The notes: a model not told the origin generated them from the sequence alone. A DNA stretch of 64,000 bases from Candidatus Heimdallarchaeum aukensis (GCA_021513695.1 CP084166.1:3017794-3081793); one strand, 5' to 3'. Counted from the stretch's first letter, positions 1 through 32,940 are shown. Translations and numbers: made by a program.

Positions 1-1
1 A

Positions 2-181
2 TCAGGGATTGATCCAAAAGAAGTCGACTTGGGAAATTTAGCGAAAAAACTTAAGACCCAACTTGCTTGTGGAGGAACGTACAAAGATGGAAGAATTGAG
101 TTGCAAGGAGATCATAGATTTAAAATAAAAGATTTACTTGTAAACGCAGGTTTTCCCGCGGAAAATATAGAAGTGCAGTAA
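2..181 (+). CDS. translation initiation factor aIF1/SUI1, C-terminal fragment (5' end truncated by the window edge)
   Basis: Frame 2 reads SGIDPKEVDLGNLAKKLKTQLACGGTYKDGRIELQGDHRFKIKDLLVNAGFPAENIEVQ* and is open from the window start. This matches the conserved SUI1-family C-terminal core (ACxGT, IELQGD). Confidence 0.8.
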   Translation, partial: SGIDPKEVDLGNLAKKLKTQLACGGTYKDGRIELQGDHRFKIKDLLVNAGFPAENIEVQ

Positions 182-264
182 GAAAGCTTTTTCTATTTTT
201 TTATATCTTTATTAAAACTCTTAACCCATATTCTTAAATTAGTCTAAATTTTATTTTCTTAATA

Positions 265-516
265 ATGAAGAAAAAAAAGAAAGAGAAAAAAGAAAAGCCA
301 ATGCGAGATAGAGTGGAAGTTTGTCCGATTTGTTTTTCAATTGTAAAAAGATCTCCCCAAATCTTTGATGTCAACAGTACTTTTCACTGTACTAATAGTG
401 ATTGTGGATGGAGTGGTTCTTTTGCTGTGGAAGTAGATATTAACGAGTATAAGCAATTTGTTAAGGATAGACAAAACAAAAATGAAAGTGATAAGAATAG
501 TAGAGATGAACCATAA
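265..516 (+). CDS. small zinc-ribbon protein with polylysine N-terminus (hypothetical)
   Basis: 83-aa ORF with CPIC ... C..S.C cysteine pairs. The N-terminus is KKKKKEKKEK. No recognisable family. Confidence 0.35.
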   Translation: MKKKKKEKKEKPMRDRVEVCPICFSIVKRSPQIFDVNSTFHCTNSDCGWSGSFAVEVDINEYKQFVKDRQNKNESDKNSRDEP

Positions 517-558
517 ATTTATTTGATAATATTGTATAAAGAGAGTAGTGAGATAAAA

Positions 559-1395
559 ATGGAAATAGCAATTGTTACTGATACAAGTAGAGCACTACCT
601 TCCCAATTATATAAATTATACAATGTCTATCCTTTAGGTTATTATTTAGAGGATTCTAAAGGAACGATCTTTGCAGAAAGAGTTAGTGCTCAAGAAGTTC
701 AAACAGATAAACTTCTAACAATTGCTGAAAAAGATAAGAATGCCCAACTTTACTCTCCGACTGTAAAGGACTTTGTAGAGTTATACACCTTTTTAGAGGA
801 AGATTTTGATCATATAATTAGCTTTCATTCTTCGTTATTTACTCCAACTGTTTTTGAAAATGCTATACTTGCAAAAAAGGTAGTTTCTGATATAACAGTT
901 GATGTTCTGGATACTTATTCTTTTGAGTCTTCCTCAGGATTGATTTTAAATCAGCTAGCTAAAAAAATTCAAGATGCAGAATCAATCAATGAAATAAGAA
1001 AAGAAAGTTTTTCTCTTCATGGTAGAATACATAGTCAATTATTAACAAAAAATGACCAATTCAACAAAATAGGATTAAGAAGAGTTACATTCCTTTCAAA
1101 TATAAAATCAGCTTTTGTTCCTTGGAATCTTTATTTGTTTAAACAAAGTAACTGGGATCTAGTCAAAAATTCTCGTTCAATAAAGACTCTACAATCAGAA
1201 ATGGAAACAAGACTAATCTCTCTTGAAAAATCCAAAGATTTGAAATTTTGTTATTATTCATCTTCAAAAAGACTGAACAAAGAAGTAAAAGAACTTCTAG
1301 AAAAATTGGATAATTTATATGTTGAAGAAACTCCTCAAACTTTAGTCGCCTATTTTCTCACTTCAGAATACTCAATGAATATTTCTGTTCTTTAA
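559..1395 (+). CDS. DegV-family protein (divergent paralogue)
   Basis: N-terminus MEIAIVTDTSRAL resembles the DegV MKIAIVTDSx motif, and the length is about 280 aa. The GGR motif seen in the other three paralogues is missing. Start chosen at the internal Met that matches the family N-terminus. Confidence 0.45.
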   Translation: MEIAIVTDTSRALPSQLYKLYNVYPLGYYLEDSKGTIFAERVSAQEVQTDKLLTIAEKDKNAQLYSPTVKDFVELYTFLEEDFDHIISFHSSLFTPTVFENAILAKKVVSDITVDVLDTYSFESSSGLILNQLAKKIQDAESINEIRKESFSLHGRIHSQLLTKNDQFNKIGLRRVTFLSNIKSAFVPWNLYLFKQSNWDLVKNSRSIKTLQSEMETRLISLEKSKDLKFCYYSSSKRLNKEVKELLEKLDNLYVEETPQTLVAYFLTSEYSMNISVL

Positions 1396-2189
1396 CTCTC
1401 TTCTTTTACTGTTTTTATTCTATAAAAATTTGAAACATTTTCTGTTGTAATATCTGCCAGTTTTTTTACATCCACTTTAATTAATTCTGCAGCTTTTTTT
1501 GTTGATATTGCTATGGCAGAAGGTTCGTTTTTTTCTCCTTTTCTTAAGCTATGATATGGACTATCAGTTTCAAACATTAACTGAGTTTCCGGAATCAAAG
1601 ACAAGATTTTTTGGAAATTTTTTCTGTAAACTAAACTTGTTGGGACTGTAACAAACCAACCATTATCAACTACTCTTTCAATCTCATTTTCTGTTCCTGT
1701 AAAACAGTGCATTAAAACGTTTTCTAGATTATATGATTCAAGAATATTGATTGCATCTGTTTCTGCAGCTCTCGAATGGATTACAATTGGTTTGTTATTT
1801 TTATTTGCGAGTTCAATAAGACGTCTGAAGAAAACTTTCTGTTCTTTTCTTTTTTCTTCTTCTTTAACCCAATAGTAATCTAATCCAATTTCACCTATAG
1901 CTACTATAAATTCTGAATTTTTTAATAAAAATTCTTCAATTTTCTTGAAGTTTTCTTCTTCTACTTCTGTTGGTTGCATTCCAATGGTTAGATGAGTCCC
2001 ATAGTTTTTTGTTAAAAATACTCCGAATTCAAAGTGATGAGGGCTTAAAATACTATTTATAATTATTTCAACGTTATTTGATCTAGCTCTTTGAACAATT
2101 TCTGGTATACTTTTTTTTGAGAAAAAAGGAGGGTAAAGGTGACAATGAGCATCTGCAAAAATTATTTTCTGATTTGACATATAATTCAC
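1392..2189 (-). CDS. tatD: TatD-family metal-dependent hydrolase/DNase
   Basis: N-terminal IFADAHCHL motif, length 265 aa, and an IGEIGLD-like motif, all typical of TatD. Confidence 0.8.
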   Translation of the reverse strand: MNYMSNQKIIFADAHCHLYPPFFSKKSIPEIVQRARSNNVEIIINSILSPHHFEFGVFLTKNYGTHLTIGMQPTEVEEENFKKIEEFLLKNSEFIVAIGEIGLDYYWVKEEEKRKEQKVFFRRLIELANKNNKPIVIHSRAAETDAINILESYNLENVLMHCFTGTENEIERVVDNGWFVTVPTSLVYRKNFQKILSLIPETQLMFETDSPYHSLRKGEKNEPSAIAISTKKAAELIKVDVKKLADITTENVSNFYRIKTVKEES

Positions 2190-3166
2190 TATTTACAAAT
2201 TATATCTTTTAGCTTCTTGAGCATCTTTATTCCGCGAATTTCTTGGTTGAAAGCTTCAACAGTAGTTACATCATGGTTTGGAAAAGCTTGTTTGATGTAC
2301 TCTAAATTAGCTAAATGCTCTTTTCTTCTATTCATACAGTAAGGACAACTTTTATTTTCTGGATTAATTTGATTGACAACTATTTCTTTATTCGGAATAT
2401 AATGTTCTTTTAATTCTTCAAATAGTCGTTCTGACTCAAAAATAGACATAAGTGTAGGAATTCCAACAATTATAAATTGTGTCTTTTCATCATCCATTAG
2501 TGTTTCTCTGGCTATAAGTATCTTCTCTTTTAATTTTTCTAAGTTCTCTATTGTTCTATCTTTTTCTACATTTCCGCCAAAAAGAGATTTAATCATTGCC
2601 ATTGTATTAGAAATGAAGGTTTTCATTTTCAACATTCTACCAATAAAAGAATCTAAAAATTCTGGAATGTTGAGTAATCTCAATGTATGTCCTGTGGGCG
2701 CAGTGTCAAGTACAATCGTGTCGAATTCTTCATTATCCGCATACTCAAGGATTTTAGCAAAAGATAGAGCTTCATCCATTCCTGGTGGAGGGATTGATTT
2801 TAGATCTTGATCTATTCCCTTCATTGCTTCCATTCCTGGAATAGACATCAAACTAGAGAATTGATCTGCATCAAAGGAATCTCCTAATGCTTTTGTTAGT
2901 TCATCTCCTGATGATTCTGGGTTGATTTCTAAAGCGTACAATTCTCCTTTTACACCTTTAACTTTAGTTACAGTTCCAGATGAAAAATCCAAATCAAAAG
3001 AATCTGAAATGCTGTGTGCAGGGTCTGTTGAAACAAGTAAAGTTTTTTTACCTTTTTCAGCTAAAGCAATAGAAATTGCAGAAGCTATAGAAGTTTTCCC
3101 TACTCCTCCTTTTCCCCCTACCAAAATGAACTTTAGGTCCTTCTCTAATAAATCCTTGATAGTCAT
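2189..3166 (-). CDS. ArsA/Get3-family ATPase (TRC40/Get3 homologue)
   Basis: Deviant Walker A GGKGGVGKT, the signature TDPAHS motif, and a CPYC pair near the C-terminus as in Get3 zinc-linked dimers. Confidence 0.8.
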   Translation of the reverse strand: MTIKDLLEKDLKFILVGGKGGVGKTSIASAISIALAEKGKKTLLVSTDPAHSISDSFDLDFSSGTVTKVKGVKGELYALEINPESSGDELTKALGDSFDADQFSSLMSIPGMEAMKGIDQDLKSIPPPGMDEALSFAKILEYADNEEFDTIVLDTAPTGHTLRLLNIPEFLDSFIGRMLKMKTFISNTMAMIKSLFGGNVEKDRTIENLEKLKEKILIARETLMDDEKTQFIIVGIPTLMSIFESERLFEELKEHYIPNKEIVVNQINPENKSCPYCMNRRKEHLANLEYIKQAFPNHDVTTVEAFNQEIRGIKMLKKLKDIICK

Positions 3167-3280
3167 TAATATAGAAAAAAATCGACTCTTATTTAAAGAT
3201 AAATATTAGTGATTAATAGAACTTTTAAGTAAAATAAAAAAAACTCTCGAAAAATAAAAATAGATAAAGAAAACAAATTT

Positions 3281-4045
3281 TTACTTTCTACGTTTTCTTT
3301 TCTTAATTTTTCTTTTTTGTTCTTGTTTTGTTTTATGTGGTTTTTTAACCAATGGGGAAATCTTTCTTGAACTTCTTCTTCGTTTATGAACTTTCTGTAT
3401 AGCGAATAAATCTACAATGATTATAGTAGTGAATACTCCAACGATACCCAAGACAAAATAGAATAAGTTTAACCATTTTTCCGAGTCTATAACTTCTACA
3501 TTTTCAGGTAATACGACATTTAACGAGTATCTTTGAGAATAAGACTTGTACATAACACTATTTTCATCATAGTATTTTATCTCTGTGGCTTCTAAGGTAA
3601 AGTTTCCTTCAAGTAAAGGTTGGATGTAATAAGTATAAACGAAGCTAGCATTTATTTCAACTTGTATATACTTTTGCTCTGTCAAATTAAAAGTTGAAAC
3701 TGCCCACTCTTCAAAGCTTGGTTCTGTAATAGAAAGATTATACGCTGTTCTGTTTCCAATATTGGTTATATTTAGGTCAATTCTAATCCATTGCAAAGGC
3801 TCAAGTTCAGTAACGTTAATTACCTTCTTTATAGCTAAAAGTGGTCTGCTAGGTAATGTATCATTAGTGTCATTTAATGCTAAATATGGTCGATAGTAAT
3901 TTCTCTCTGGTTCCTGAATTTTTTGAATCTGGTCATTGTTGTTTATTACACTGTTGGAACCACTAATAAATGATGAATTTACAGCTAAAACTAACATCAC
4001 AACTAATACAAATCGTAAATACTTTCTTCCGGGCATATGTTTCAT
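3281..4045 (-). CDS. secreted/membrane-anchored protein rich in N-glycosylation sequons, with a C-terminal TM helix and polybasic tail (hypothetical)
   Basis: N-terminal hydrophobic signal-like segment. More than 10 N-x-S/T sequons. C-terminal hydrophobic helix followed by a tail that includes KRRRSSRK and KRKIKKRKRRK. Confidence 0.5.
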   Translation of the reverse strand: MKHMPGRKYLRFVLVVMLVLAVNSSFISGSNSVINNNDQIQKIQEPERNYYRPYLALNDTNDTLPSRPLLAIKKVINVTELEPLQWIRIDLNITNIGNRTAYNLSITEPSFEEWAVSTFNLTEQKYIQVEINASFVYTYYIQPLLEGNFTLEATEIKYYDENSVMYKSYSQRYSLNVVLPENVEVIDSEKWLNLFYFVLGIVGVFTTIIIVDLFAIQKVHKRRRSSRKISPLVKKPHKTKQEQKRKIKKRKRRK

Positions 4046-4243
4046 TATCCTTTTATTGCTTATGGAGCATGAAATAATCTCGTTTAAATATTTTGCTCTT
4101 GGAACTAGAAATAAGCTAGCGCTTTATTTACTTATCGCCTATTTTTTTCCTTATATTTAGATGTTATTTTAAGAATTCTAGGTAACAATATTTTATGGTA
4201 AAAGAACATAGTAACAATTATAAAAAGGTGGATTTGTTTTAAA

Positions 4244-5143
4244 TTGAGAGCAATGACTGTTAAAATTCTATGTGATACTAGTGCAGATTTGAATCTTCCC
4301 ACTGATCAAACAATCTATGACAAATATAACATTGGAACTTTTCCCATGCATGTTATTTTTGGAACGAATGATTATAGAGAATTAGTTGACATAAAAACTT
4401 CTGAATTCAGGAAAAAGATCTATGAAACAGATGTTCATCCCACCACTTCTCAACCAACACAATTTGATATCTTAACACAATTTGAGAAGTTTGGAAAAGA
4501 CTACGATGAAATCATATCATTTCATATCTCATCAAAATTAAGTGGGAGCTATGCTAATGCAAAAATAGCTAAAAAAATGTATGAGAAATCAAATAAAGAA
4601 CATGCTAAAGTGTATTTAGTTGATAGTTTATTAGCTAGTTCAGCTTTTGGACTTGTAGTTATTAAAGCCGCTAAGTTAGCAGAAGAAGGTCTGTCTGGAC
4701 AAGAAATAGTTGATAAAATAAACGATTGGAAAAAAAATAATATAGTTGTTTATTTCACTGTAGAGAACTTAGAGTGGCTTTATCGCGGAGGTAGATTAAG
4801 TAAAACTAAGTACTATTTAGGTAGCATGTTAAACAAAAAACCAGTTTTAACATTAGTTGATGGAGAAATTGTGAGTGCAAAGACTGTTACAGGAATAGAA
4901 AAAACTTTTGATACTATAATTGACCTTGCCTTTAAACGCTTTCCAGAAGTTGAGCAGGAGAGAATAATGTACAATATTATCGAATTTGATTACAAAGATG
5001 TAGTAGATGATGTAATTCAGAAAACGAAAAACAAGTATCCTAATGCTAAAGAAGGAAAAGTGTTTGAAATGGGAGGAACAATTGCAGCTCATACTGGTCC
5101 AAAAACTCTAGGGTTTATTGTTACCAAAGATTTTGAATTTTAA
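4244..5143 (+). CDS. DegV-family fatty-acid-binding protein
   Basis: MTVKILCDTSADL N-terminus and a YRGGRLSK motif, length about 300 aa. Paralogous to the next two ORFs. Confidence 0.75.
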   Translation: MRAMTVKILCDTSADLNLPTDQTIYDKYNIGTFPMHVIFGTNDYRELVDIKTSEFRKKIYETDVHPTTSQPTQFDILTQFEKFGKDYDEIISFHISSKLSGSYANAKIAKKMYEKSNKEHAKVYLVDSLLASSAFGLVVIKAAKLAEEGLSGQEIVDKINDWKKNNIVVYFTVENLEWLYRGGRLSKTKYYLGSMLNKKPVLTLVDGEIVSAKTVTGIEKTFDTIIDLAFKRFPEVEQERIMYNIIEFDYKDVVDDVIQKTKNKYPNAKEGKVFEMGGTIAAHTGPKTLGFIVTKDFEF

Positions 5144-5210
5144 TTTCTTTTTTTTCTTTTCTTTTTTGGAAAAAGATTTATTCAACACATTTTAAGTTAG
5201 TTTGAAATAG

Positions 5211-6119
5211 ATGACAATAAAGATTTTGTGTGATACTTCAGCTGATCTTGTCTTACATCCAAATAAGCCACTGTATGACTCGCTAGGTGTTGGAATTCTT
5301 CCCATGAAAGTTTTTTTTGATGAGAATGATGTTTTTTTAGAGCAAAAAAATATTAGTAACATACAGTTTTATGAGTTAATAAGACTCTCCCAGACCCAAC
5401 CTAAAACCTCTCCTCCTTCAGCAGATGATATATTTAAAGAATTTCAAAGATATGGAAGAGAATATGATGAACTAATTTCTTTACATATTTCTAAAGATTT
5501 AAGTCATACATATTTTAACGCTGTTGAAGCAAAGAAGAGATACTTGAAAACTGAATCAAATCCAGCCAAAATAAATATAATTCATAGTGGTGTTGCAAGT
5601 TTAGCTCTGGGAAAACTTGTATTGAAAGCTGTTGAACTTAAAAATAAAGGTTTTGAAACTTCTGAAATTATAAAACAACTTTATTCTTGGAAAGAAAATA
5701 ATGTTAAAGCAGCTTTTACTGTTAGAGATTTAAATTGGTTATATGAAGGAGGAAGACTTACAAGGTCACAGAAAACAATAGGTACAATATTAAATAAAAA
5801 ACCTGTTCTTACTTTTGATCATGGAAAAATCAATGTAATTGGTTATTCAACAGGATTGGAAAGAACATTGAGATTTATGGTTAAATATCTCTTATCACAG
5901 ATGGAGGAGGAGAAAATAAACAAACTTACCTTGTCTTTTATCACAGCACAGAATTTTGGTTTAATAGATGACTTCTCAAGAGTAATAAAGAAAGAATTTC
6001 CGAAAATTAATTTAGGTCCTAAATTTGAGCTAGGTGCAACAATTACTAGCCATACAGGAATGGAGACAATAGGTTTTGTAATTTCAAGTAATCTTAAAAT
6101 AGATCCTTTAATAAAATAA
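5211..6119 (+). CDS. DegV-family fatty-acid-binding protein
   Basis: MTIKILCDTSADL N-terminus and a YEGGRLTRSQK motif. Tandem paralogue. Confidence 0.75.
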   Translation: MTIKILCDTSADLVLHPNKPLYDSLGVGILPMKVFFDENDVFLEQKNISNIQFYELIRLSQTQPKTSPPSADDIFKEFQRYGREYDELISLHISKDLSHTYFNAVEAKKRYLKTESNPAKINIIHSGVASLALGKLVLKAVELKNKGFETSEIIKQLYSWKENNVKAAFTVRDLNWLYEGGRLTRSQKTIGTILNKKPVLTFDHGKINVIGYSTGLERTLRFMVKYLLSQMEEEKINKLTLSFITAQNFGLIDDFSRVIKKEFPKINLGPKFELGATITSHTGMETIGFVISSNLKIDPLIK

Positions 6120-6242
6120 TTAACTTAACTTTAATGTTTTCTTACGTGTTGGCTATATTTGCCACTATAAAACAAGAATCTTTAAAGATTTTTTTCTTAA
6201 AAAAGATTTAAAAAAAAGCGTTTTATATACAATTGAACACAA

Positions 6243-7133
6243 ATGACAGTAAAAATAATGACCGATAGTGCAGCAGATATTCCCGAATATCTCCTAAAGG
6301 AGTATGATATCTCTACAGTCCCCACAGTAATCAGATTTGGTGATGATGTCTATTATGAAAACAAAGATTTGACTTTGGATCAATACTATGAACTATTTCA
6401 TTCTCATCCAGAACCACCTCAAACAGCTAATCCTACTTTAGCTGATGACTTTGAATTATACAAAAAACTAGGAGAAGAAGCTGATGAAGTGATAAATATT
6501 GTTATTTCTAGCGGTATTTCTGGTTCATTCAACACTTCTAATGCTGCTTTGAAAATGTATGAAAAGAGAGTAAAAGATGGTGCAAAAGTATATGTCTTTG
6601 ATTCACATTTTGCTACAATGGGTATAGGTGTCCAAGCTTTAAAGGCTTCAGAGATGGCTAAAGAAGGACATAATGCAGCTGAAATATTGGCAATGTTAGA
6701 AGAATACAGAGACAAATTAGCTGTTGCTTTCACAGTAGATAATTTAAAGTATCTCCATAGAGGAGGAAGATTGTCAAAATCTAAATTTTGGATAGCCAAA
6801 CTAGCTGACTTACATCCTGTGATTACTTTTATTGATGGAAAAATGGAAGTTGAAAAGACTTCTAGAGGTTATGATAATGCAATGGAAAAAGCTTTTGATC
6901 TATCTTGGGAAAAAACGAATAAAGCTAAGAAATTCAATGCCTATATCTGTTATGGAGAAAATAAAGAACACGCTCTATACATGAGAGATTATATCCAAGA
7001 TAAAGTAGATGCAGAATTTAATATCGAGATATATCAAGTAGGAGCAACAATAATTACCCATACAGGTCCAGAAGTAAGTGGAATACTGCTTGATCCTTAT
7101 AATGAAAAACTCTATAAAGCATCAGAAAAATAG
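6243..7133 (+). CDS. DegV-family fatty-acid-binding protein
   Basis: MTVKIMTDSAADIP N-terminus and a HRGGRLSKSK motif. Tandem paralogue. Confidence 0.75.
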   Translation: MTVKIMTDSAADIPEYLLKEYDISTVPTVIRFGDDVYYENKDLTLDQYYELFHSHPEPPQTANPTLADDFELYKKLGEEADEVINIVISSGISGSFNTSNAALKMYEKRVKDGAKVYVFDSHFATMGIGVQALKASEMAKEGHNAAEILAMLEEYRDKLAVAFTVDNLKYLHRGGRLSKSKFWIAKLADLHPVITFIDGKMEVEKTSRGYDNAMEKAFDLSWEKTNKAKKFNAYICYGENKEHALYMRDYIQDKVDAEFNIEIYQVGATIITHTGPEVSGILLDPYNEKLYKASEK

Positions 7134-7134
7134 G

Positions 7135-7872
7135 ATGGATTGTATGATATCCTTTGATGCTTTTTTCTTTGACTTAGATGGGACTTTAATAGACTTTAAT
7201 CCCAATAATTTTGTAAAAATCTATTTAGGAGCTGCTGCAAAGTATTTTAAGGATTTGATACCTGATAGTGACTATTTTATTCAATCAATATTAGATTCAA
7301 CAAATGTAATGGAAATGGCTGAAACTCCAAAGAAACTAGCTTTATACGACTTTTTTGATGATTTTTGTCAAAAGTTCGATCCTGAATGTTCAACTATAAT
7401 TCAGAGATTTAGAAATTTCTATAATGAAGGTTTTAATGTAGTAGAGAAAATTATAAGACCTATTCCTTACGCTGAAACTGTTCTTTCATTTATTAGAGAC
7501 AATTATCCAAAAAGCAAAATTGTTCTAGCAACAAATCCGGTTTTTCCAGAAGTAGCTATTATTAAAAGATTGAACTGGGGGGGATTGTCAGAAAATCTTT
7601 TTGATTACATTACCCATGCTGAAAATAGCTATTATTGTAAAGGTTCTTTAAATTATTGGATAGACTTAGCAAAAAAACTTGATGTGAAACCTGAGAAAAC
7701 ATTGGTTGTAGGAAATGATGGAGAACGTGATATGATTGCCAAAAAAGCTGGTTTCAAGACATTCTTTTTGACACAAACTGCTGAAAATGAGCACTCCATA
7801 GAGAAATACAAACCGGACTACAAAGGGAGCTTGGAATCACTATTAAATTTATTAAATGAAAAGAAAGACTAA
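7135..7872 (+). CDS. HAD-superfamily hydrolase
   Basis: FFFDLDGTLIDF motif I lies close to the chosen start (MDCMISFDAFFFDLDG). The C-terminal VGNDGERDM resembles HAD motif IV. The gene follows immediately after the third tandem DegV. Confidence 0.7.
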   Translation: MDCMISFDAFFFDLDGTLIDFNPNNFVKIYLGAAAKYFKDLIPDSDYFIQSILDSTNVMEMAETPKKLALYDFFDDFCQKFDPECSTIIQRFRNFYNEGFNVVEKIIRPIPYAETVLSFIRDNYPKSKIVLATNPVFPEVAIIKRLNWGGLSENLFDYITHAENSYYCKGSLNYWIDLAKKLDVKPEKTLVVGNDGERDMIAKKAGFKTFFLTQTAENEHSIEKYKPDYKGSLESLLNLLNEKKD

Positions 7873-7918
7873 TAAGTTGTAAAAATAGCTTTTTCTTAGT
7901 TTATAAAATTATGATTGC

Positions 7919-7989
7919 ATTCGCCTATGATGATGCAACGGTCTGCGATTCGAAAGAAAATGAACGCTGATGGGCGGGCTGAGGCGAAT
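7919..7989 (+). ncRNA. candidate C/D box sRNA (2'-O-methylation guide)
   Basis: GC-rich 71-nt island in an AT-rich intergenic region. The 5' ATTCGCC pairs with the 3' GGCGAAT to form a 7-bp terminal stem. A C box ATGATGA lies directly after the 5' stem and a D box CTGA directly before the 3' stem. The C-to-D span is 56 nt, typical for archaeal C/D sRNAs. An internal TGATGG could be the C' box. The internal D' box is degenerate. Confidence 0.4.
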
Positions 7990-8046
7990 TAAATATTTTC
8001 TTTAATTAAAAAAAGAAAGTAAATTGATTTTGTAAAAGAAATTTTC

Positions 8047-9750
8047 TTATTCTTTTACTGCTTTAATAACTTCTTTGTATTTGTAGAAGGCTAGTCTTTT
8101 GTGGCCATTTTCTGCTACTAAACCGTTTAAATTAGCAGTAATAGTTCTATCCATCAAAGGATCACATATGAAACCAGTTATCTTCTGGTTATTTACCACT
8201 ATTTCCAGCTGTCTAGCTAGGGTTCCTGCTTGAATTCTTTCTCCATACATCATAGGTGAAAAACTTGTTGAACTAATCCACACAGTCTTATTAGCTTGTA
8301 CAGTTATATTCAGGTATTCATCGAAATTGAGGTCTCTATCTTGATAAACATAAATGTTGATTATTGCTAAATCAATAGTCGTAGAATTCCATAAATTATC
8401 GAACAATCCGCTATCAATATCATCTAAGGTTACAGAAACTGCAACTTTTGTTTTATTAGAAAGTGAATGAATTAAGTTAGCAGTATTATTTATTGCTTGT
8501 GTCCAATCGTTATTTGTTATAGTTTCTTCAGGATTCATGAAATAAGTTTGAAAAACAATTGGTTGAGGATAGATTACAAGATAATCTGGTTCATAATTTT
8601 CAACTATCATTTGAGCCTCCATTTCTATTGTATTACTGTAATTTGCAAATGACTCATAGGGATAGCTCCATGTAGCATTTCCATAGGCAAAAAGAGCAAT
8701 TTTCAATCCTTCTGATTTAAGAGCATTGAGCATATTACCAAAAGATGTTTGATTTGCTAGAATAATATCAGTTAACACATCAATAGATACTGTATCTACT
8801 CCTAATTCTCTTATAAGATCAAGTTCTAGTGAAAAAATTTCTTCATAGTTTGATGGTAAAAAGGTTTGAAAGCTTCCAGTTCTAAGTGAAACAGCAAAAC
8901 TAAAGTCTTCTCTTTGTATGTATGTTGGTTGATAATTTTTAGCAGTATATTGACTTAAAGATGATAGCACTCCCACTCCAATCATGCTAAATATTATTAA
9001 GAACAGGACAATAAAAACAAAAATACCTTTTACTCCATTACTAAGAAAAGTCCCTATTCCTCTTTTTTCTTTCTTTTCTTGTTCTTTTTCTATTCTTTCA
9101 AGAAAAACAGTACTTTTCTTTCTTGAAACTTTTTCTCCTTTTTTTTCTTGAGAAACAGCTTTTTTAGAAATTTGCTTCTTTTCTTCATCTACACTTTTTA
9201 TTTTTCCTTTTTCAAAAAGATCAATAGGTATTGCTATCGGAATCAATATAAATAGTGGATACCAATAAGCTGTTCCTCCTGTAAAGAACAGAGCTTGAAG
9301 TAATCCATATGAGATAGAAGGAATTGTTAATATCCAATTTAGAAAACGAGGAAGGTTTAATACGGTATAAGAAGCAATTACGTTTAATAATATTAGCGTT
9401 GAATATAAAGCCATAAAACTGAAAATTATTCCTCCCATACGCTTTAGAAAATCTGTTTCACTCTTGAAAATATAGACAGTAGCGATAATGTTGTTTACGC
9501 ACAAGAAAAGAAAGCCAAAAAATCCAAGAAAGCCTGTAGACGGTAAATATAATCTTATGAACCATATAAAAGAAGATAGAGTTCCGATTGAAATCAATGC
9601 AGATGAGATTAATGACCAAATAAACTGTTTATCTCTTTTCTTTCTTGAAAGATTCTTGTAAAGTGTTTTTACTACTATTACCATATTAAAAATAAATGCG
9701 AGAAATATTAATACTATCGCACCATTTGTCCCAAGTAAAGCTGCCATCAT
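8047..9750 (-). CDS. polytopic membrane protein with a large C-terminal extracytoplasmic domain (possible glycoside-hydrolase-like TIM barrel), hypothetical
   Basis: About 9 hydrophobic helices in the N-terminal 250 aa, then a lysine/glutamate-rich linker and a roughly 300-aa domain with many N-x-S/T sequons. No confident family assignment. Confidence 0.45.
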   Translation of the reverse strand: MMAALLGTNGAIVLIFLAFIFNMVIVVKTLYKNLSRKKRDKQFIWSLISSALISIGTLSSFIWFIRLYLPSTGFLGFFGFLFLCVNNIIATVYIFKSETDFLKRMGGIIFSFMALYSTLILLNVIASYTVLNLPRFLNWILTIPSISYGLLQALFFTGGTAYWYPLFILIPIAIPIDLFEKGKIKSVDEEKKQISKKAVSQEKKGEKVSRKKSTVFLERIEKEQEKKEKRGIGTFLSNGVKGIFVFIVLFLIIFSMIGVGVLSSLSQYTAKNYQPTYIQREDFSFAVSLRTGSFQTFLPSNYEEIFSLELDLIRELGVDTVSIDVLTDIILANQTSFGNMLNALKSEGLKIALFAYGNATWSYPYESFANYSNTIEMEAQMIVENYEPDYLVIYPQPIVFQTYFMNPEETITNNDWTQAINNTANLIHSLSNKTKVAVSVTLDDIDSGLFDNLWNSTTIDLAIINIYVYQDRDLNFDEYLNITVQANKTVWISSTSFSPMMYGERIQAGTLARQLEIVVNNQKITGFICDPLMDRTITANLNGLVAENGHKRLAFYKYKEVIKAVKE

Positions 9751-9854: not shown

Positions 9855-10229
9855 GTGTTAACTATGTTCACTTATGAGCTAGAGGACGAATACTTAACAT
9901 TCATCAAAGAGAGCATAAAGGAGCATATATTTCAGTTACTCGATGAAAATAATGGAAAAATATCGTTAATGAAATTATTTGAAAAAATGATACACATAAA
10001 TAATCATTATTTGGCACAGAAATTAAGAATAGATGCGGCATTACATGAATTAGAATTGCAAGGGATAATTGAAATAAAAAATAAGCAAATAAGAAGGTTA
10101 TCAATGGGTGTATTTGATGAAACTGGCTTTAAAGAAGAATATGTAAAAAACTTTTACGAAAAGAGGAAAAAGGATGAAGAAATAAGGAGAATGATTAGAG
10201 CTCTTAGTCAAACTATACTTTCAGAATAA
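9855..10229 (+). CDS. hypothetical protein (possible winged-helix domain)
   Basis: 124-aa ORF with a typical codon pattern. A helix-rich region is followed by a basic C-terminus. First gene of a co-directional three-gene cluster. Confidence 0.4.
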   Translation: MLTMFTYELEDEYLTFIKESIKEHIFQLLDENNGKISLMKLFEKMIHINNHYLAQKLRIDAALHELELQGIIEIKNKQIRRLSMGVFDETGFKEEYVKNFYEKRKKDEEIRRMIRALSQTILSE

Positions 10230-10278
10230 TTTTTACTAAAAGTTTTTATTTTGAAATCAGTAATAGTTCTATGATACT

Positions 10279-11157
10279 ATGTCCGAAACAAATATACCTC
10301 GAATTGTTCTGGGTTCTGTATTGTATCCCTATTTTGAGCGCATCCCACAGGATCACATACTAAGAAACAAAGAAGAACTTGTTAAGTTGGTTGAGCGGTG
10401 TTATCATGCAGGAGCAAAAGCGTTTTTATTTTATCTTTATAACAAAGAAATTGTTGAAATAGCAAACAGTATTACTGAAAGTATTCCTGATATTTTGTCA
10501 ATGTTTCTCATAAAGTTTGACAACATGGATTACATATTAAACCTTCTTAAAGAACTCAAGAAAAAGCCCTATATTCTATTTTTGTCTTCTGAAATAAGTG
10601 ATCAGAGAGACTCAGAACTTATACAACGGTTTAGGAAAGCTTTGAGCAAACATGCTGAACATATAGGCATATATTCAAGAGAGCCAATAGGCACAGTTTC
10701 CCAGTTAATTACAAGTAATGGGGATATTGAGCATTTTCTAATACCTTTTAATTTGTTAGGTTATGGTGTCCAAAATAGAGCTTTACTTGAGATGATTGTT
10801 AACTCTTCTGAAAATATTTACTATAGCTCTAATCCCGTAGCTGATGGTAAACTAAAAGTAAGGCAGGCTTTAGAATATATTTCGAATCATAATGTCAGAG
10901 GAATTTTAGTAGAATTAGAAGACGAAGAAGACATGTTAGAAACAATAAAGTACGGGAGATATTTCTTAGAAACAAAAGATTTCTTACAAATAACGCTTGA
11001 ATTTGAAGATATTACAGATGTATGTGAGTATTGTGGAATAGGAATGGAAAGATATTATCCACCAAGCAAGAGTGGAGGAAGTTACTTCTACTGTCCTTCA
11101 TGTGGACATACAAAACAAATAACAGAAGTAACATACCAAGAGGAAACAGAAAAATAA
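10279..11157 (+). CDS. hypothetical protein with C-terminal zinc ribbon
   Basis: 292-aa ORF ending in CEYCG...(17)...CPSCGH, a 4-Cys zinc ribbon. Confidence 0.45.
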   Translation: MSETNIPRIVLGSVLYPYFERIPQDHILRNKEELVKLVERCYHAGAKAFLFYLYNKEIVEIANSITESIPDILSMFLIKFDNMDYILNLLKELKKKPYILFLSSEISDQRDSELIQRFRKALSKHAEHIGIYSREPIGTVSQLITSNGDIEHFLIPFNLLGYGVQNRALLEMIVNSSENIYYSSNPVADGKLKVRQALEYISNHNVRGILVELEDEEDMLETIKYGRYFLETKDFLQITLEFEDITDVCEYCGIGMERYYPPSKSGGSYFYCPSCGHTKQITEVTYQEETEK

Positions 11158-11399
11158 TTTCAATTGGAAAAAATAAAAACAAAGATAAAACTTGAGTTAA
11201 GAAATAGTAAAGTAACTTTTATTTAATTAGCAAAGATATCTATTCTTAAAGATAATATTACTGTTATCACTTTAAAATATATTTTTGTAATTTTCAAAAA
11301 AATAGAAACGATTATCTATGTTATTAGCTGAACTTCAATATCTGACTAATTGATTATATTAATAAAGTACAGTGTTTTCTCTTTGTTAGATAGGAAAGA

Positions 11400-11999
11400 G
11401 TGTTGATACGTATGGCTAGATGTAAATATTGTAACAAAATAATTCCCGATGAAGCTGAATTTTGTCCTTACTGCGGAAAAAAGAAGCCTATAAGAAAAAT
11501 TGTGGGTGAAATCGAAGACATAACAAAAAAAGTTAGAGAAAAAATCGAAAAAAGAATTCCCACTATAAGGAAACAAGCTTTAGAAATACTAGACAGATTG
11601 TCATCTAAAGCAAAACAAGCTTCTCTTCCAGATTTTGTGGATAGAACAAAGGTTATCTCAATTCTTAATGATTTGAAAGCTAAATTAGATACTGAAACTG
11701 ATCAATCCAAGATACAAGAATACTCTGAATGGGCTAATTTGATTGAGCAGACGATTAGTGGAGAAAATTGTATAATTTGTTATCAACCATTTGATATTCA
11801 TAAAGATGGTCATTTAGACGTCTCTCTCTGCCCTTCATGTCATTATGCCGCTCACGTTAATCATTTTGAAGCTTGGTTAGACAAAAAAGCTGTATGTCCA
11901 ATATGTAAGGCTTCAATATCTAAAAATCAACTAGTTCGAGGGTATATTCAACATAAAGAAGGTGAAATTGTTTTTACTTCTTCAGAAAAACAATTTTAA
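11400..11999 (+). CDS. zinc-ribbon plus RING-like (cross-brace) zinc-finger protein
   Basis: N-terminus CKYCN...(10)...CPYCG is a zinc ribbon. C-terminus CIICYQPFDIHKDGHLDVSLCPSCHYAAHVNHFEAWLDKKAVCPICK has the spacing C-x2-C-x13-C-x2-C-H-x3-H-x2-H-x10-C-x2-C, consistent with a RING-H2-like domain. Confidence 0.55.
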   Translation: MLIRMARCKYCNKIIPDEAEFCPYCGKKKPIRKIVGEIEDITKKVREKIEKRIPTIRKQALEILDRLSSKAKQASLPDFVDRTKVISILNDLKAKLDTETDQSKIQEYSEWANLIEQTISGENCIICYQPFDIHKDGHLDVSLCPSCHYAAHVNHFEAWLDKKAVCPICKASISKNQLVRGYIQHKEGEIVFTSSEKQF

Positions 12000-23199: not shown

Positions 23200-23329
23200 A
23201 TAATATAATCCTCTTTTTTTTTATTTTCTTTTTTTTGAAGTTTTTAAAGAATAATCAAATTAAGTTAGCACAAATAACAGCAAAGTTAAATATGACTACC
23301 TTTGAGAATAAAGTAAGATTGGTGAGATT

Positions 23330-24286
23330 ATGTCTGAGGATGAACAAAAAACTCAAGTTGAAGAAGAGAAAACTGAGGTAAAAGAAGAAAAAGAAGAAAC
23401 TCCCTTGGAAATGTACCAAAAAGCTGGAAAAGTAGCTCACGAAATTCTTCAAACACTTAAAGATATGGCTAAACCCGGAGTTAAAGCTCTAGATTTAAGT
23501 GAAAAAGCAGATGCAATGATAGCTGAAGCAGGAATGAAACCTGCATTTCCTCTAAATATAGCAATAAACAATCATGCTGCTCATTACACTTGTCCTTGGG
23601 AAGATGATTTGATTCTTCAAGAGGGAGATGTAGTAAAAATTGATGTTGGTGTTCATTATAAAGGTTTTATTGCAGATACAGCTTTAACTGTTGCTTTTGA
23701 TGATGTCCATAATGATTTAATTAAAGCAAGTAAAGAAGCAACTGAAACAGCCGTAAAAGTTATACGTGTAGGAAATTATACTGGTAAATTAGGAGATCTA
23801 ATTGAAAATATTATTGAAGGATACGGCTTCTCAACAGTAAAAGACTTGTCAGGCCATTTGCTTATGCCTTATCTTGTTCATGGTCCAAAAACTATTCCAA
23901 ATGTAAGTGGAAGAAAAGGTAACTTGATTTTACAAGATGAAGCTTATGCTATTGAAACCTTCGCAACAACAGGTGCAGGAGAATCAAAACCAGATAAAAC
24001 AAAGTTATATATTGTAAGGTTAGCAGAAGGAAGATTTCCACTAAGAACAAGAGCTGCAAAAGATGTTAGAAATCTTCTAGATAGAGAATATCATAGAATG
24101 CCTGTAGCAACAAGATGGATATATAAGGCCCTTGGTCCTGCTAAGGCAAAAATGGGTATTAGAGAATTAATTAATGTGGGAGCTTTATATCAATATCATG
24201 TGCTTTCTGATACTTCTGGATCTTTTGTATCACAGCATGAGCATACAGTTTACATGACAGAAGAAGGGCCAGTACAAACTACATAA
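23330..24286 (+). CDS. map: methionine aminopeptidase type 2-like protein (copy 1)
   Basis: Pita-bread fold motifs carrying the MetAP2 metal ligands: KIDVGVH, ADTALT, GHLL, AIETF. The acidic/lysine-rich N-terminal extension is reminiscent of eukaryotic MetAP2 and PA2G4. A GGTGA ribosome-binding site lies 5 nt upstream. Confidence 0.7.
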   Translation: MSEDEQKTQVEEEKTEVKEEKEETPLEMYQKAGKVAHEILQTLKDMAKPGVKALDLSEKADAMIAEAGMKPAFPLNIAINNHAAHYTCPWEDDLILQEGDVVKIDVGVHYKGFIADTALTVAFDDVHNDLIKASKEATETAVKVIRVGNYTGKLGDLIENIIEGYGFSTVKDLSGHLLMPYLVHGPKTIPNVSGRKGNLILQDEAYAIETFATTGAGESKPDKTKLYIVRLAEGRFPLRTRAAKDVRNLLDREYHRMPVATRWIYKALGPAKAKMGIRELINVGALYQYHVLSDTSGSFVSQHEHTVYMTEEGPVQTT

Positions 24287-24416
24287 TCCTTTTTTTATTT
24301 TACTGTTTATTTTTTGTTTTGAGAATAGTAATTTTGTATTTTCATTTAAAAAAATCATTTTTTAAGAACAATAAATCTTTAATATTGAAAAGTTGTAAAT
24401 GAATGTGTTGATATAA

Positions 24417-25639
24417 TTGACTTTACAGACAAGTGAATTCAAATTTATAATGTATGAACCATGTTTTAATAATTACGATATTGTGTATAACGAATATATG
24501 CTGGCTTATGAAGAATTTAAGAAACTAGGAGAAGAGATGTCAATTTTCGCGTTCTCTCTTACTTCTATGAAGGAATGCTCTATCTTATTAATGGTGACAA
24601 ATTCTTTTCTCAGAAGGAATACAAAAAAGCAAATGAAAACTATGAAGAAGCACAAAAATTAATTACTCGCTCTAGAGCATCAAGAGGAATTGAAAAAGAT
24701 ACTATCTGGCAAGAAATGGTTAAATGGATAGCATATTGCGAATCTTATACTAATCTTTCCAAGAGTTATTTAGTCAAAGATTTCTCAGAAAAAATTGAAC
24801 TATTAAAGAAAAGCAAGGCAGCAATTAAAGATTTTGTAGAAAAAAGGAAATATGATGAAAACATCATCTTGGATATCTATGCAAAAGCTAAAGAAAATTA
24901 TATCAAGTACATTTATTACATAAATTTAGCTCAAAAATATGAGAAAAACACAAGAATGCAGAAAAAAATACTCCTTAAAGCGAGAAGAAAGCTACTTTTA
25001 GCTCACTTTATTCTTAATCACTATGAAGAAGAAATAGATGATTTAGACTTTAAAATTGATGAGCTAACAAAGACACACATAGTTGAAAGAGCAGAAATGT
25101 ACTGGAACAAGGGAACTTTACTAATTTCTCAAAGTGACTTTATGAGTGCACACAAATATCTTCTTCTAGCTTCTCAGTACTATGAACGAGCAAGCAAAAT
25201 ATGTTCAGAATTTATTGAATTAAGATTATATTTAGCTCTTAGTAAAATAACAGAAAGTAGCGGTCTTGAAGCAAAAGCTAATGAACTTTACAGAAGGCAG
25301 GACAAGCCCCTAGAAGCCAGTAAACTGTTTGAAGAAGCATATGAAGTTGTAGACGAATCCCTCGGTTTACTAGCTACAATTCACAATGAAGTGTTAATAA
25401 ACAATATGACTGCACAAAGATCTTATTATGAAGCTTTAGCACTCGAAGCAAAAGGTATATCCCTCTTTGACGAAGAGAAATATAAAGAATCTATAGAAAT
25501 TTTTGAACAATCAATGCAAAAATTAGAAGAAACAGAACGCTTAGTAGTCGAAGGTAGTTCAGAGCATTTACAAGAGTACATTCGCTTAGCTAAGAATGAG
25601 ATTGAAGGTTATTTATCTATGGCAAAAACTATGCTTTAG
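24417..25639 (+). pseudogene. TPR-like helical-repeat protein gene, frameshifted (copy 1)
   Basis: Two overlapping ORFs (24417..24662 and 24575..25639) together equal the intact 407-aa ORF of copy 2. Copy 1 lacks one A in the GAGAA run near 24537. Confidence 0.6.
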
Positions 25640-25697
25640 TATCAAATTTTTCTTCAATCAATAATCTTTATTTATCACAATATAAACAATAAATGCA

Positions 25698-26393
25698 ATG
25701 CTGTTTGACGATTTTGAAATAAAGGAGTACTTGGAAAATTTTTTCTCAAAGAATCTATCTGCCAAAGATTATCCTGAACCCGACACTGATCTCGATCATA
25801 AATTAGTTTGGAATTACAGTGAAAATGGAGATGCTTTTTCAGTACTTCTTGATCCAATAAATGATGCTTACGAATACTTTGGAGTTACTGTAGGTGAGAT
25901 ATTTGCTCACCATCGATTCAAACCAATTGTTTGGCACTTGTATCTTTTTGGCAATAAAATAAAGAGCTTTGAATGGATTAAATTAAAAGATGGAACTGAT
26001 TATCTTATTAATGTTGGGACTTACTCTTTTATTTCTTATATCTACGATTTTAAAAGTGGGAAAAGGTTATACAGAAACCCAATAGAAGAGATAAAATCTC
26101 AAATATATTCACTTAACCTCAAGTATGATATATCTGTAAATGATGTAAATGAATTTGTAGAATATTCTTTTATTGAAGACTACAGGTGGGGAGAAGTTTC
26201 GAGAAACGCTATAATAGCTCTTATACTAGATAATTTCAATAAAGATAAAATAAATGTTAATGTTCTAGGATTAATTAATCGTGTTTTACACGAATATTCT
26301 AATTACGAATCAGACAAACAACTACTAGAAAGAGTGAAAAAAGGAGAATCACCTTTTGAACTAGGGACTATCTTTTATAACGATTTTATATAA
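25698..26393 (+). CDS. hypothetical protein (copy 1)
   Basis: 231-aa ORF, duplicated identically at 30554..31249. Confidence 0.4.
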   Translation: MLFDDFEIKEYLENFFSKNLSAKDYPEPDTDLDHKLVWNYSENGDAFSVLLDPINDAYEYFGVTVGEIFAHHRFKPIVWHLYLFGNKIKSFEWIKLKDGTDYLINVGTYSFISYIYDFKSGKRLYRNPIEEIKSQIYSLNLKYDISVNDVNEFVEYSFIEDYRWGEVSRNAIIALILDNFNKDKINVNVLGLINRVLHEYSNYESDKQLLERVKKGESPFELGTIFYNDFI

Positions 26394-26406
26394 AAAGAGA
26401 AAAAAT

Positions 26407-26706
26407 TTAACTCATTTTAAATTCTACACCGAATCCTCCATGAGGATAGTGCCAATCAACACTTCCGTGAGGACAAACAAGCCTACATGTTCCACATTCA
26501 ACACAAGGTGCATAATCAAACGTTACAGGTACATCTCCATCTTCAACTAGTTTATAACATTCTGCAGGGCAACCATATACACAGTCATATGTCTTACATT
26601 TAGTTTTGCATATCTCCTCGTTTATGGTAATGTGAGCAAAATTTTTGTCTGTAACATACTTTGTTAATGCAAGTTTTTCTTCAATTTTTATTGGATTTTC
26701 TACCAT
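26407..26706 (-). CDS. fixX: ferredoxin-like protein FixX (copy 1)
   Basis: 99 aa. A CVECGTCRLVCP cluster. Immediately downstream of fixC. Confidence 0.75.
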   Translation of the reverse strand: MVENPIKIEEKLALTKYVTDKNFAHITINEEICKTKCKTYDCVYGCPAECYKLVEDGDVPVTFDYAPCVECGTCRLVCPHGSVDWHYPHGGFGVEFKMS

Positions 26707-26718
26707 TCTTTTCTCCTC

Positions 26719-28032
26719 CTAAATAGATCTTAAAGCAGCAAAAGCATCTCCCATGAGCTTAAACAGCTTACCTTTCTTTAGGAAGTGCTTAATAGCTGTA
26801 GGAACAATTCTTTTTCTAGGCTCTCCAGTGTTGTGTAAAAGTTGATACATCAAAGAATTAAGCAGTTCTGGATAAACATTGAAAATTCTCTCTCTCTCCA
26901 AGAACTTTGCAGCTCGTTTAAATCTCTTCAAATCTTGCAAAACAAAACTATCTCGCAATAATTTCAAATAAATCTTTGTTCCTTCTGCAGAATAATCATT
27001 TGTTGTTAAAGCTTCTTTTGCTGCTAACCCTGCTAGTCTTCCAGACTCTAAAGCAAAATTCATACCTTCTATGTACAAACCTGCGTTAAGAACCATACCA
27101 GCAGCATCACCAGCAATCATCACACCGTTCCCATATAACTTAGGCATGTGTTTGTATCCCCCTTCAGGAATAGCGTGAGCAGAGTATTCAACCATTTTAG
27201 CATCTTTAAGGAGCTTTTGGATGTAGGGGTGTTTCTTAAAATCTTCAAAAGCATCAATCGCTCTGATCTTTTTTTGTATAAGTTTTTTCATGTTTAAGAT
27301 CAATCCAAAAGAAAGTGTTTCTTTATTTGTATAGAAGAATCCTCCTCCTGGAATTCCATGAGTATAACCTAGAAACTCGTTACTTATTCCTTCATTTCCA
27401 TTAAGATGAAATCTCTCTTCAATTATTTCTTTCTTTAATTCATATGTTTCTTTCATTCCTACAGCGTAGTGTGAAGGTGAAGGCTTTTTAGCAAGTTTAG
27501 CTTTTTCTGCTAATAAAGTAACAGCTCCTTCAGCAATTATAGTGAGTTTAGCTTTTAATTCATCTTCTCCAGATTCTATTCCTATAATTTGATTATCCTT
27601 CCAAATGAAATCTTCAGCTACAGTGTTGTCGAGAATAAAAGCTCCTGCTTCTTCTGCTTTTTGGGCCAACCATCTGTCAAATTTTGGACGAATAACAGTT
27701 ACACCATTGTAAGGTGGTTCGGCAAAATCTTGTAAATCAATATCAATAGTCATTGCTCGCTTTTCAGACAAAAGAGTAATCTTTTTAGTTGTTAAATATC
27801 TCTCAATAGCATCTTCTTCCCAATAGTTAGGAACGATTTTATTTAGTACTGGGCCGTAAAGAGCTCCTCCACTTACATTTTTTGCACCAGGATACTGTCC
27901 TCTTTCAATAATAGCAACCTCTTTTCCTTCCTTTGCTAAAGTTAATGCTGCAGAAGAACCAGCTAGTCCAGCTCCAACTATAATTACATCAAAATCGTAT
28001 TCTACAGTCATAAAAAAATGTTTGATTTTCAA
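26719..28032 (-). CDS. fixC: FAD-dependent oxidoreductase FixC (ETF-quinone oxidoreductase-like), copy 1
   Basis: DVIIVGAGLAGSSAAL Rossmann motif, length 437 aa, adjacent to fixX. Confidence 0.8.
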   Translation of the reverse strand: MKIKHFFMTVEYDFDVIIVGAGLAGSSAALTLAKEGKEVAIIERGQYPGAKNVSGGALYGPVLNKIVPNYWEEDAIERYLTTKKITLLSEKRAMTIDIDLQDFAEPPYNGVTVIRPKFDRWLAQKAEEAGAFILDNTVAEDFIWKDNQIIGIESGEDELKAKLTIIAEGAVTLLAEKAKLAKKPSPSHYAVGMKETYELKKEIIEERFHLNGNEGISNEFLGYTHGIPGGGFFYTNKETLSFGLILNMKKLIQKKIRAIDAFEDFKKHPYIQKLLKDAKMVEYSAHAIPEGGYKHMPKLYGNGVMIAGDAAGMVLNAGLYIEGMNFALESGRLAGLAAKEALTTNDYSAEGTKIYLKLLRDSFVLQDLKRFKRAAKFLERERIFNVYPELLNSLMYQLLHNTGEPRKRIVPTAIKHFLKKGKLFKLMGDAFAALRSI

Positions 28033-28184
28033 TATAAAATGTTTATGTGAAAATATAAAAAAGAAAATAGAAAAGAATGAAAAATTATTTTATCTTTTTT
28101 AAAGAATAATCAAATTAAGTTAGCACAAATAACAGCAAAGTTAAATATGACTACCTTTGAGAATAAAGTAAGATTGGTGAGATT

Positions 28185-29141: not shown

Positions 29142-29271
29142 TCCTTTTTTTATTTTACTGTTTATTTTTTGTTTTGAGAATAGTAATTTTGTATTTTCAT
29201 TTAAAAAAATCATTTTTTAAGAACAATAAATCTTTAATATTGAAAAGTTGTAAATGAATGTGTTGATATAA

Positions 29272-30495: not shown

Positions 30496-30553
30496 TATCA
30501 AATTTTTCTTCAATCAATAATCTTTATTTATCACAATATAAACAATAAATGCA

Positions 30554-31249: not shown

Positions 31250-31262
31250 AAAGAGAAAAAAT

Positions 31263-31562: not shown

Positions 31563-31574
31563 TCTTTTCTCCTC

Positions 31575-32888: not shown

Positions 32889-32940
32889 TATAAAATGTTT
32901 ATGTGAAAATATAAAAAAGAAAATAGAAAAGAATGAAAAA

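Follow-up and report, generated by a model that had tools for sequence, protein, structure and literature searches.

In eukaryotes, RING E3 ligases determine which substrates the ubiquitin system acts on; many RING-like folds are not ligases. An archaeal RING protein, small and operon-encoded, is that of Caldiarchaeum subterraneum, which is reported to act with a eukaryote-like E1 and E2 (Hennell James et al. 2017); we liken our protein to it by description. In Asgard archaea, a Helarchaeia cascade of E1, E2 and RING E3 (Hel_GB_B, contig NODE_4) ubiquitinates UEV-Vps23 in vitro (Lu et al., bioRxiv 10.1101/2023.07.25.550441, later Cell Rep 2024). The Asgard RINGs studied are small ones encoded inside ubiquitin-ESCRT operons. 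Here we describe a second, larger family encoded away from the operon, represented by a gene in a 64-kb stretch of the Candidatus Heimdallarchaeum aukensis genome (hereafter the window; GC content 32%).

For comparison we collected Asgard E2 loci using a search baited with two operon E2s, which yielded loci from Hel-, Jord-, Frey-, Baldr-, Borr- and Sif-archaea. Near the E2, 13 out of 19 Asgard loci contain a 76–110-aa ORF with a C4H2C2 signature (four Cys, two His and two Cys as zinc ligands). The Hel_GB_B NODE_4 contig is one of these 13, and its RING ORF (the L018 ORF) is presumably the protein assayed by Lu et al., since it lies on the same contig, no further RING ORF occurs near the E2, and its N-terminal region fits the 'N-loop 1-19'. 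Two small C4H2C2 RING proteins, P0150 (79 aa, Helarchaeota) and P0118 (82 aa), are encoded directly beside ubiquitin (PF00240), UQ_con (E2) and ThiF (E1) genes, in clusters that also hold Vps4, ESCRT-II and Snf7 genes. The RING domain of our protein shares 38% identity with P0150 over 58 residues (E = 4e-12), and the profile of its family matches P0118 with an hhalign probability of 98.9%. A Hodarchaeales locus (class Heimdallarchaeia) has E2, a 110-aa C4H2C2 RING, a Rab-like GTPase, ubiquitin, E1 and Yip1 together; this E2/RING/ubiquitin/E1 locus fits the published description of the Hodarchaeia cluster. The operon RINGs have the C4H2C2 signature and a W...CPxC[RK] tail in common with our protein. 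They are 76–110 aa long, carry a conserved N-terminal 'RFI...GxWDW' loop and are found beside ubiquitin/E2/E1 genes, whereas our protein, at 195 aa, carries a zinc ribbon followed by a helical linker in place of the loop, adds a C-terminal hairpin, and is encoded without a ubiquitin-system neighbour.

The sequence-only reading (a model's first reading of this DNA) had placed an ORF at 11400..11999 and had pointed to Asgard archaea. The ORF is indeed present on the + strand and ends at 11999, but its start is more likely the ATG at 11412 than the GTG at 11400, because the NCBI and JGI gene calls and every orthologue use the former (all begin with MA[RH]CKYC); the gene calls at loci L001-L003 likewise give 195 aa. 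The first four codons from GTG 11400 are thus probably left untranslated. The 195-aa protein (MARCKYC...) is 100% identical to P0001, listed by NCBI for Ca. Heimdallarchaeum aukensis as a 'zinc-ribbon domain-containing protein', and the organism is indeed an Asgard archaeon. Its closest orthologues are found in Ca. H. endolithica (87% identity) and in two Heimdallarchaeaceae MAGs (51–53%). Table 1 lists the features of the gene and its surroundings.

Table 1. Coordinates of the RING gene, its domains and its neighbouring features in the window (positions counted from the first nucleotide of the window)
Feature	Position	Strand	Residues and motif	Basis
First gene of the trio	9864..10229	+	121 aa as called (124 aa from GTG 9855)	Gene calls L001, L002
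Upstream neighbour	10279..11157	+	292 aa, C-terminal CxxC-x19-CxxC ribbon	Orthologue in L004
Gene of the ribbon/helical-linker/RING protein	11412..11999, stop codon included	+	195 aa	ATG 11412 as probable start
N-terminal zinc ribbon	11412..11489	+	aa 1-26, C4-x2-C7-x10-C18-x2-C21-G	Pfam
Predicted helical linker	11499..11756	+	aa 30-115	Full-length AlphaFold model, low confidence (pLDDT 50-74)
RING domain	11769..11909	+	aa 120-166; putative site 1 C120/C123/H148/H151, putative site 2 C140/C143/C162/C165	
C-terminal beta-hairpin after the RING	11934..11981	+	aa 175-190 (LVRGYIQH / GEIVFT)	Domain model
T8 run between RING-gene stop codon and pyrE start codon	12006..12013	+		Sequence reading

The N-terminal CxxC...CxxC ribbon, already picked out in the sequence-only reading, is recognized by Pfam above the gathering thresholds of two families (DZR, 30.2 bits against 27.3, E = 5e-7; Zn_Ribbon_1, 26.8 bits against 25). 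Zn_ribbon_3 is matched too, and all three matches fall on aa 5-28 of the 199-aa ORF. The ribbon cysteines C4, C7, C18 and C21 are invariant in four close orthologues, and the ribbon is kept in most of the distant homologues in a 29-sequence alignment. Between ribbon and RING, three helices are predicted (aa 30-69, 78-94 and 98-115; AlphaFold, pLDDT 50-74), and around aa 72-82 the alignments show the conserved sequence 'LP-F[VI]-x-[KR]-x-K[IV]'; the linker has no family match in Pfam. The full-length AlphaFold model, built from four orthologues, has a pLDDT of 60 (40-60 in the RING region) and is unusable, so any roles given to the linker and the ribbon are guesses. The C-terminal hairpin (strands at residues 78-85 and 88-93 of the domain model described below) is found only in the Heimdallarchaeaceae clade (P0002-P0012) and is absent from distant homologues.

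The C-terminal motif reads C120-x2-C123-x16-C140-x2-C143-H144-x3-H148-x2-H151-x10-C162-x2-C165. In the 29-sequence alignment, whose members diverge to as little as 16% identity, invariance is confined to C120, C123, C140, C143, H148, H151, C162, P163 and C165. H144 is present in only 6 out of 28 family sequences and was rejected as a zinc ligand, so that the conserved ligand set is C4H2C2. The sequence-only reading had counted H144 among the ligands and had given the first loop as x13 instead of x16; the remaining spacing was right. Across 28–29 homologues the invariant signature is C-x2-C-x(12-16)-C-x2-C-x4-H-x2-H-x(10-11)-C-x2-C, and the eight-ligand spacing fits the RING superfamily pattern (C-x2-C-x(9-39)-[CH]-x(1-3)-[CH]-x(2-5)-[CH]-x2-[CH]-x(4-48)-C-x2-C). 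The signature occurs once among all six-frame ORFs of the window, and it never arose when all ORF translations were shuffled 500 times or when the RING protein was shuffled 200,000 times. The Cys/His motif is not a product of chance.

As compared to canonical RING-H2 domains (C3H2C3, with C-x-H-x2-H-x2-C), ligands 3-6 are here C-x2-C-x4-H-x2-H: ligand 4 is a Cys, located before the canonical C3 position, and ligand 6 is a His. HMMER aligns C143 to the canonical third Cys, and H148 and H151 to ligands 5 and 6. The second half, H-[FLI]-x2-W-[LIV]-x5-C-P-x-C-[RK], is typical RING-H2. The sequence-only reading, which had suggested a RING-H2 or RING-variant domain, holds as regards the RING and needs correction as regards canonical RING-H2. 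Eukaryotic RING-H2 E3s (RNF24, rice EL5, RNF38, Arkadia/RNF111, RNF165 and plant ATL proteins) are matched by the family profile over the whole domain (E = 2.7e-9 to 1e-7), and have in common with it the fold, the hydrophobic residue after C1, the central-helix Trp, CP-x-C and the basic linchpin. Among PDB entries, RNF24 (2.7e-9) and EL5 (3e-9) are followed by Arkadia, RNF38, RNF165, listerin and AMFR (1e-7 to 4e-6), and plant ATL-like proteins also turn up when 1.8 billion sequences are searched with the family profile. In E3s with a coiled coil and a C-terminal RING (RNF8, Bre1/RNF20) a helix likewise runs straight into the RING, and the RNF8 match spans both helix and RING (profile positions 4-76, E = 3e-4). 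We note that this likeness is an architectural analogy only, as the helical part has no detectable homology.

The C-terminal domain is very probably a RING fold. Each of the 28 family members has a Pfam zf-RING_2 match that covers the whole profile (best E = 2.2e-8). The gathering threshold of 27.3 bits is exceeded by several of them (P0008 and P0024, 30.3 bits each; P0110, 29.4; P0087, 29.0; P0054, 28.4); our protein itself falls below it, scoring 21.9 bits at full length and 24.4 bits when only the domain is used (in both cases over profile positions 2-44 of 44). For residues 98-195, AlphaFold with 28 sequences gave a model that has a mean pLDDT of 82.8, with 85-97 over most of the finger, and in which a beta-hairpin (D136-C140 and Y145-H148) leads into a helix that starts at V149. 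In fold comparison this model matches only RING/U-box structures, on which it superposes at 1.3-1.9 A. The HMM search and the AlphaFold model, both of which had been proposed as checks alongside the sequence-only reading, thus came out in favour of a RING. The same evidence bears on a reading of the eight ligands as two independent, sequential ribbons or knuckles (C120/C123/C140/C143 and H148/H151/C162/C165) with no RING fold. The zinc pairs can be read that way on paper, and both the RING protein and its neighbour are rich in plain zinc ribbons. We regard this arrangement as extremely improbable: the RING-fold domain model excludes it as far as a model can, and RING-H2 sequence homology spans the whole domain. 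With the canonical cross-brace rule applied, the two zinc sites would be interleaved (C120/C123/H148/H151 and C140/C143/C162/C165), as the fold match implies. A reader finger of the PHD type (C4HC3-type spacing), with a peptide or a modified protein tail and not an E2 as its binding partner, is also improbable, to a somewhat lesser degree. The spacing C140-x2-C143-x4-H148-x2-[H] is that of PHD fingers and of Prok-RING_1 (PF14446) rather than that of RING-H2, and Prok-RING_1 is matched by 28/28 members (best E = 2.3e-8), with a similar C-x2-C-x4-H spacing of ligands 3-5. The Prok-RING_1 matches cover only about positions 4-33 of 54, however, and the C-terminal half is RING-H2-like instead; our protein scores 14.2-17.7 bits against the cut-off of 29.1 (profile positions 4-31 of 54). 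The sixth ligand, a His, also differs from PHD fingers, and the C-terminal domain does not show the PHD combination of C4HC3 ligands, profile match and fold.

A RING fold may or may not be catalytic, and here the positions that contact the E2 carry the argument. In RING-E2 and RING-E2~Ub structures (c-Cbl-UbcH7, RNF4, BIRC7, RNF38), the residue after C1, the central-helix Trp, the Pro after C7 and the basic residue after C8 bind the E2 and prime the thioester. The first is hydrophobic in 28/28 family members (I121 in our protein; I/L/V/F/M), W155 is found in 27/28, P163 in 28/28, and the basic residue (K166; R/K) in 26/28. Mainly because these positions are conserved and would not be needed in a purely structural finger, we favour an active E3. 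The gene product is reasonably likely to be a soluble RING-type E3 ligase that stands alone and serves ubiquitin, or possibly another ubiquitin-like modifier. Its C-terminal 47 residues would form the RING cross-brace around two zinc ions. A thioester-charged E2~ubiquitin would bind to the surface made up of I121, W155, P163 and K166, the basic 'linchpin', and transfer of the ubiquitin to a lysine of the substrate would thereby be promoted. The N-terminal ribbon and the helical linker may supply substrate or partner recognition, or perhaps oligomerisation. E2 binding, ligase activity and these N-terminal roles are what we infer.

A non-catalytic finger, i.e., a zinc-stabilised protein-protein, ubiquitin-binding or scaffolding module in the style of the RING-like fingers found in subunits of IFT-A, GATOR2 and coatomer, would share the RING fold, and we consider it unlikely while giving it more weight than the two alternatives above. 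The family profile also matches non-ligase RING-like fingers (IFT144/WDR19, WDR24, WDR59 and MIOS), and there are weak Pfam matches to Zn_ribbon_IFT122_C and Zf_2nd_IFT121. None of the six genomic contexts covered has a ubiquitin-system neighbour: ubiquitin, E1, E2 and deubiquitinase genes are absent from the window and, in five other genomes, from the 10 kb around the homologues. Yet all four E2~Ub-contact positions are kept in 26–28 of 28 members, and in sequence the family comes closest to active RING-H2 E3s and to the Asgard RINGs of the ubiquitin operons; both observations argue for the active E3.

An active E3 would be expected to have a cognate E1, E2 and ubiquitin encoded in its own genome. 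We take the Heimdallarchaeota AB_125 genome to belong to Heimdallarchaeaceae. Two E2s with a catalytic Cys have been described in AB_125 (Hatano et al., PMC9192718). For Ca. H. aukensis itself, the matches listed in a homologue search include E2s from Hodarchaeales and from a MAG labelled 'Heimdallarchaeota archaeon' and none from this species; those listed in a metagenome scan with the Hodarchaeales E2 are close relatives of the bait, and among those listed in a genome-contig scan with two Asgard operon E2s (one from Helarchaeota) there is no Ca. H. aukensis E2. The genome paper of Ca. H. aukensis does not mention ubiquitin.

As for the distribution of the family, a word-indexed homologue search found 4–6 relatives. 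An exhaustive HMMER search of 1.84 billion representative sequences using a four-sequence profile (E <= 1e-3) resulted in 350 matches, about 30 of which are full-length, with the ribbon, about 90 helical residues and the Cys/His domain. One candidate relative, P0005, was rejected as it is a chimera with ribosomal protein S3. The named members are from Heimdallarchaeaceae, Kariarchaeaceae and Hodarchaeales, and the combination of ribbon, helical stalk and C4H2C2 RING, as recognized in these sequences, has so far been seen in Heimdallarchaeia only. In public databases most members are labelled 'zinc-ribbon domain-containing' or 'hypothetical'; two Hodarchaeales relatives are annotated by NCBI as RING finger proteins. 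The C4H2C2 signature is more widespread, being found in 86 out of 172 proteins collected from the searches. These carriers range from 79 to 755 aa and have varied architectures (some with Ig-like or LRR domains or extra ribbons), and those that are named come from Helarchaeota, Hermodarchaeota, Freyarchaeota and Hodarchaeales. The canonical RING-H2 pattern among the collected matches belongs to plant ATL-like proteins.

Judged from its sequence, the RING protein is a new paralogous family and domain architecture among the already known Asgard RING E3s. The novelty is limited to the family, because Asgard RING E3s were known before and one of them has been reconstituted; nothing known is overturned. 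The signature C-x2-C-x(12-16)-C-x2-C-x4-H-x2-H-x(10-11)-C-x2-C-[RK] picks out such proteins, which is of value for annotation since for most members the label goes no further than 'zinc-ribbon' or 'hypothetical'. The family hints at modular E3 diversification in Heimdallarchaeia and, if active, would provide a handle on the number of E3s and substrates per Asgard cell. More tentatively, and with a probability below even, the family could be one of several stand-alone, substrate-specific E3s that use the operon-encoded E1-E2-ubiquitin machinery. If this were true, one E2 with many modular RING E3s would already have been diversifying in Asgard archaea before eukaryogenesis, and the C4H2C2 finger could be near the ancestral state from which RING-H2 arose.

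Upstream of the RING gene are two genes on the same strand, which together with it form a trio (Table 1). The 121/124-aa protein has a weak MCM4_WHD match (E = 0.0044, below cut-off), by which it is possibly a winged helix, and a 48% identical orthologue in locus L004. The 292-aa protein has a 67% identical orthologue at the same position in L004; the zinc ribbon that the sequence-only reading had assigned to this second gene is real, and its C-terminal CxxC-x19-CxxC is kept in the orthologue. Neither protein has a Pfam match above cut-off, or an NCBIfam or PDB sequence match. Downstream is pyrE, followed by pyrF, dihydroorotase (pyrC), pyrK and pyrD on the opposite strand. The order of trio plus pyrE is kept in two other Heimdallarchaeaceae genomes, in which the DNA further upstream differs, and in every Heimdallarchaeaceae locus the RING gene is found among genes annotated without a function and pyrimidine-biosynthesis genes. 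In Hodarchaeales and Kariarchaeaceae the neighbours are unrelated genes, and the 292-aa protein has no similarity (BLASTP) to the genes upstream there. The idea of a three-gene module was therefore downgraded, and the trio is better seen as lineage-level synteny than as evidence of a functional module. The three-gene cluster (9855..11999) of the sequence-only reading, for which a check of co-occurrence in relatives had been suggested, accordingly stands as a gene order conserved within Heimdallarchaeaceae and does not extend beyond that family; it is also interrupted by a 254-nt spacer before the RING gene. This spacer has a GC content of 21%, and the corresponding spacers in relatives are 66 and 20 nt long. 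Oligo-T runs can terminate transcription in archaea, and the T8 run downstream of the RING gene may be a putative terminator of this type; with the long spacer upstream and the T8 run downstream, the RING gene may be transcribed alone.

The protein encoded next to the RING gene (292 aa) is more conserved between genomes than the RING protein itself, with 67% identity versus 53%. Pfam, NCBIfam and the PDB sequences give no match to it, and its C-terminal CxxC-x19-CxxC ribbon is conserved.

The surroundings of the cluster differ between the window and its Heimdallarchaeaceae relatives. In two relatives' loci with the same cluster (L004, positions 1-8400, and L006, positions 1-7000), a block lies directly upstream of the cluster, in the order ETF alpha/beta, FixC, M42 peptidase, GNAT, Ras-like GTPase, TetR and FtsX permease. 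The same ETF-to-FtsX block is found in the window about 21 kb downstream of the cluster and inverted (see the table), and the position upstream of the cluster is taken instead by three DegV genes and a gene for a 567-aa membrane protein. This difference is a genome rearrangement adjoining the cluster locus. In the window's block, the GNAT and Ras-like genes are separated by an ORF with a Cas12f1-like/TnpB TNB domain, probably an IS200/IS605-type TnpB; neither L004 nor L006 has anything at this place. The location of the Ras-like GTPase gene near the cluster is kept in the relatives; this GTPase belongs to the set of eukaryotic signature proteins that Asgard archaea encode.

Features of the window outside the RING gene
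Feature	Position	Strand	Content	E-value
292-aa protein	10279-11157	+	C-terminal zinc ribbon
Tandem duplication, copy 1	23246-28098		M24 peptidase, TPR protein, 231-aa ORF, FixC/ETF-QO-like flavoprotein
Tandem duplication, copy 2	28101-32954		same genes as copy 1
ETF-to-FtsX block	32941-43131		inverted relative to L004 and L006
TnpB-like ORF, 485 aa	36995-38452	-	Cas12f1-like/TnpB TNB domain	4.8e-9
Ras/Roc/Arf-family small GTPase, 168 aa	38773-39279	-	Ras	7e-33
LonB-type protease, first ORF	52255-54372	+	AAA/Mg-chelatase N-terminus, intein splicing domain
LonB-type protease, second ORF	54366-55757	+	AAA lid, Lon_C

The window also contains a 4,854-bp tandem duplication with 99.98% identity between the copies, whose single difference alters the length of the TPR ORF (354 aa versus 407 aa). 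The duplication may have arisen recently or may be an artefact of the assembly. An archaeal LonB-type protease is apparently split into two overlapping ORFs: either the gene encodes a LonB with an intein and has a frameshift, or the ORF has been mis-split.

Small operon-type RING ORFs near E2 genes (L011-L025 and L030-L038) share a conserved N-terminal motif, approximately RFI(I/L)-x6-8-G-x-W(D/N)W, just ahead of the first Cys. The motif matches the 'N-loop' of a Helarchaeia RING E3, which is reported to bind UEV-Vps23 (bioRxiv 10.1101/2023.07.25.550441), and is absent from the family of the window's RING protein. One of these loci, L017, is on a contig of a bacterial MAG (DATKTP010000243.1, labelled Candidatus Deferrimicrobium sp.) that encodes an Asgard-type E2 (61% identical to a Helarchaeota E2) and a small C4H2C2 RING protein, and is probably a misbinned Asgard contig.

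Two short ENA/NCBI metagenome proteins are related to the N-terminal part of the window's RING protein family: P0005 (47% identity over about half of the query), which otherwise consists of the C-terminal domain of ribosomal protein S3 (PF00189), and P0155 (83% identity over 39% of the query). Both look like assembly or gene-calling chimeras rather than true fusions.
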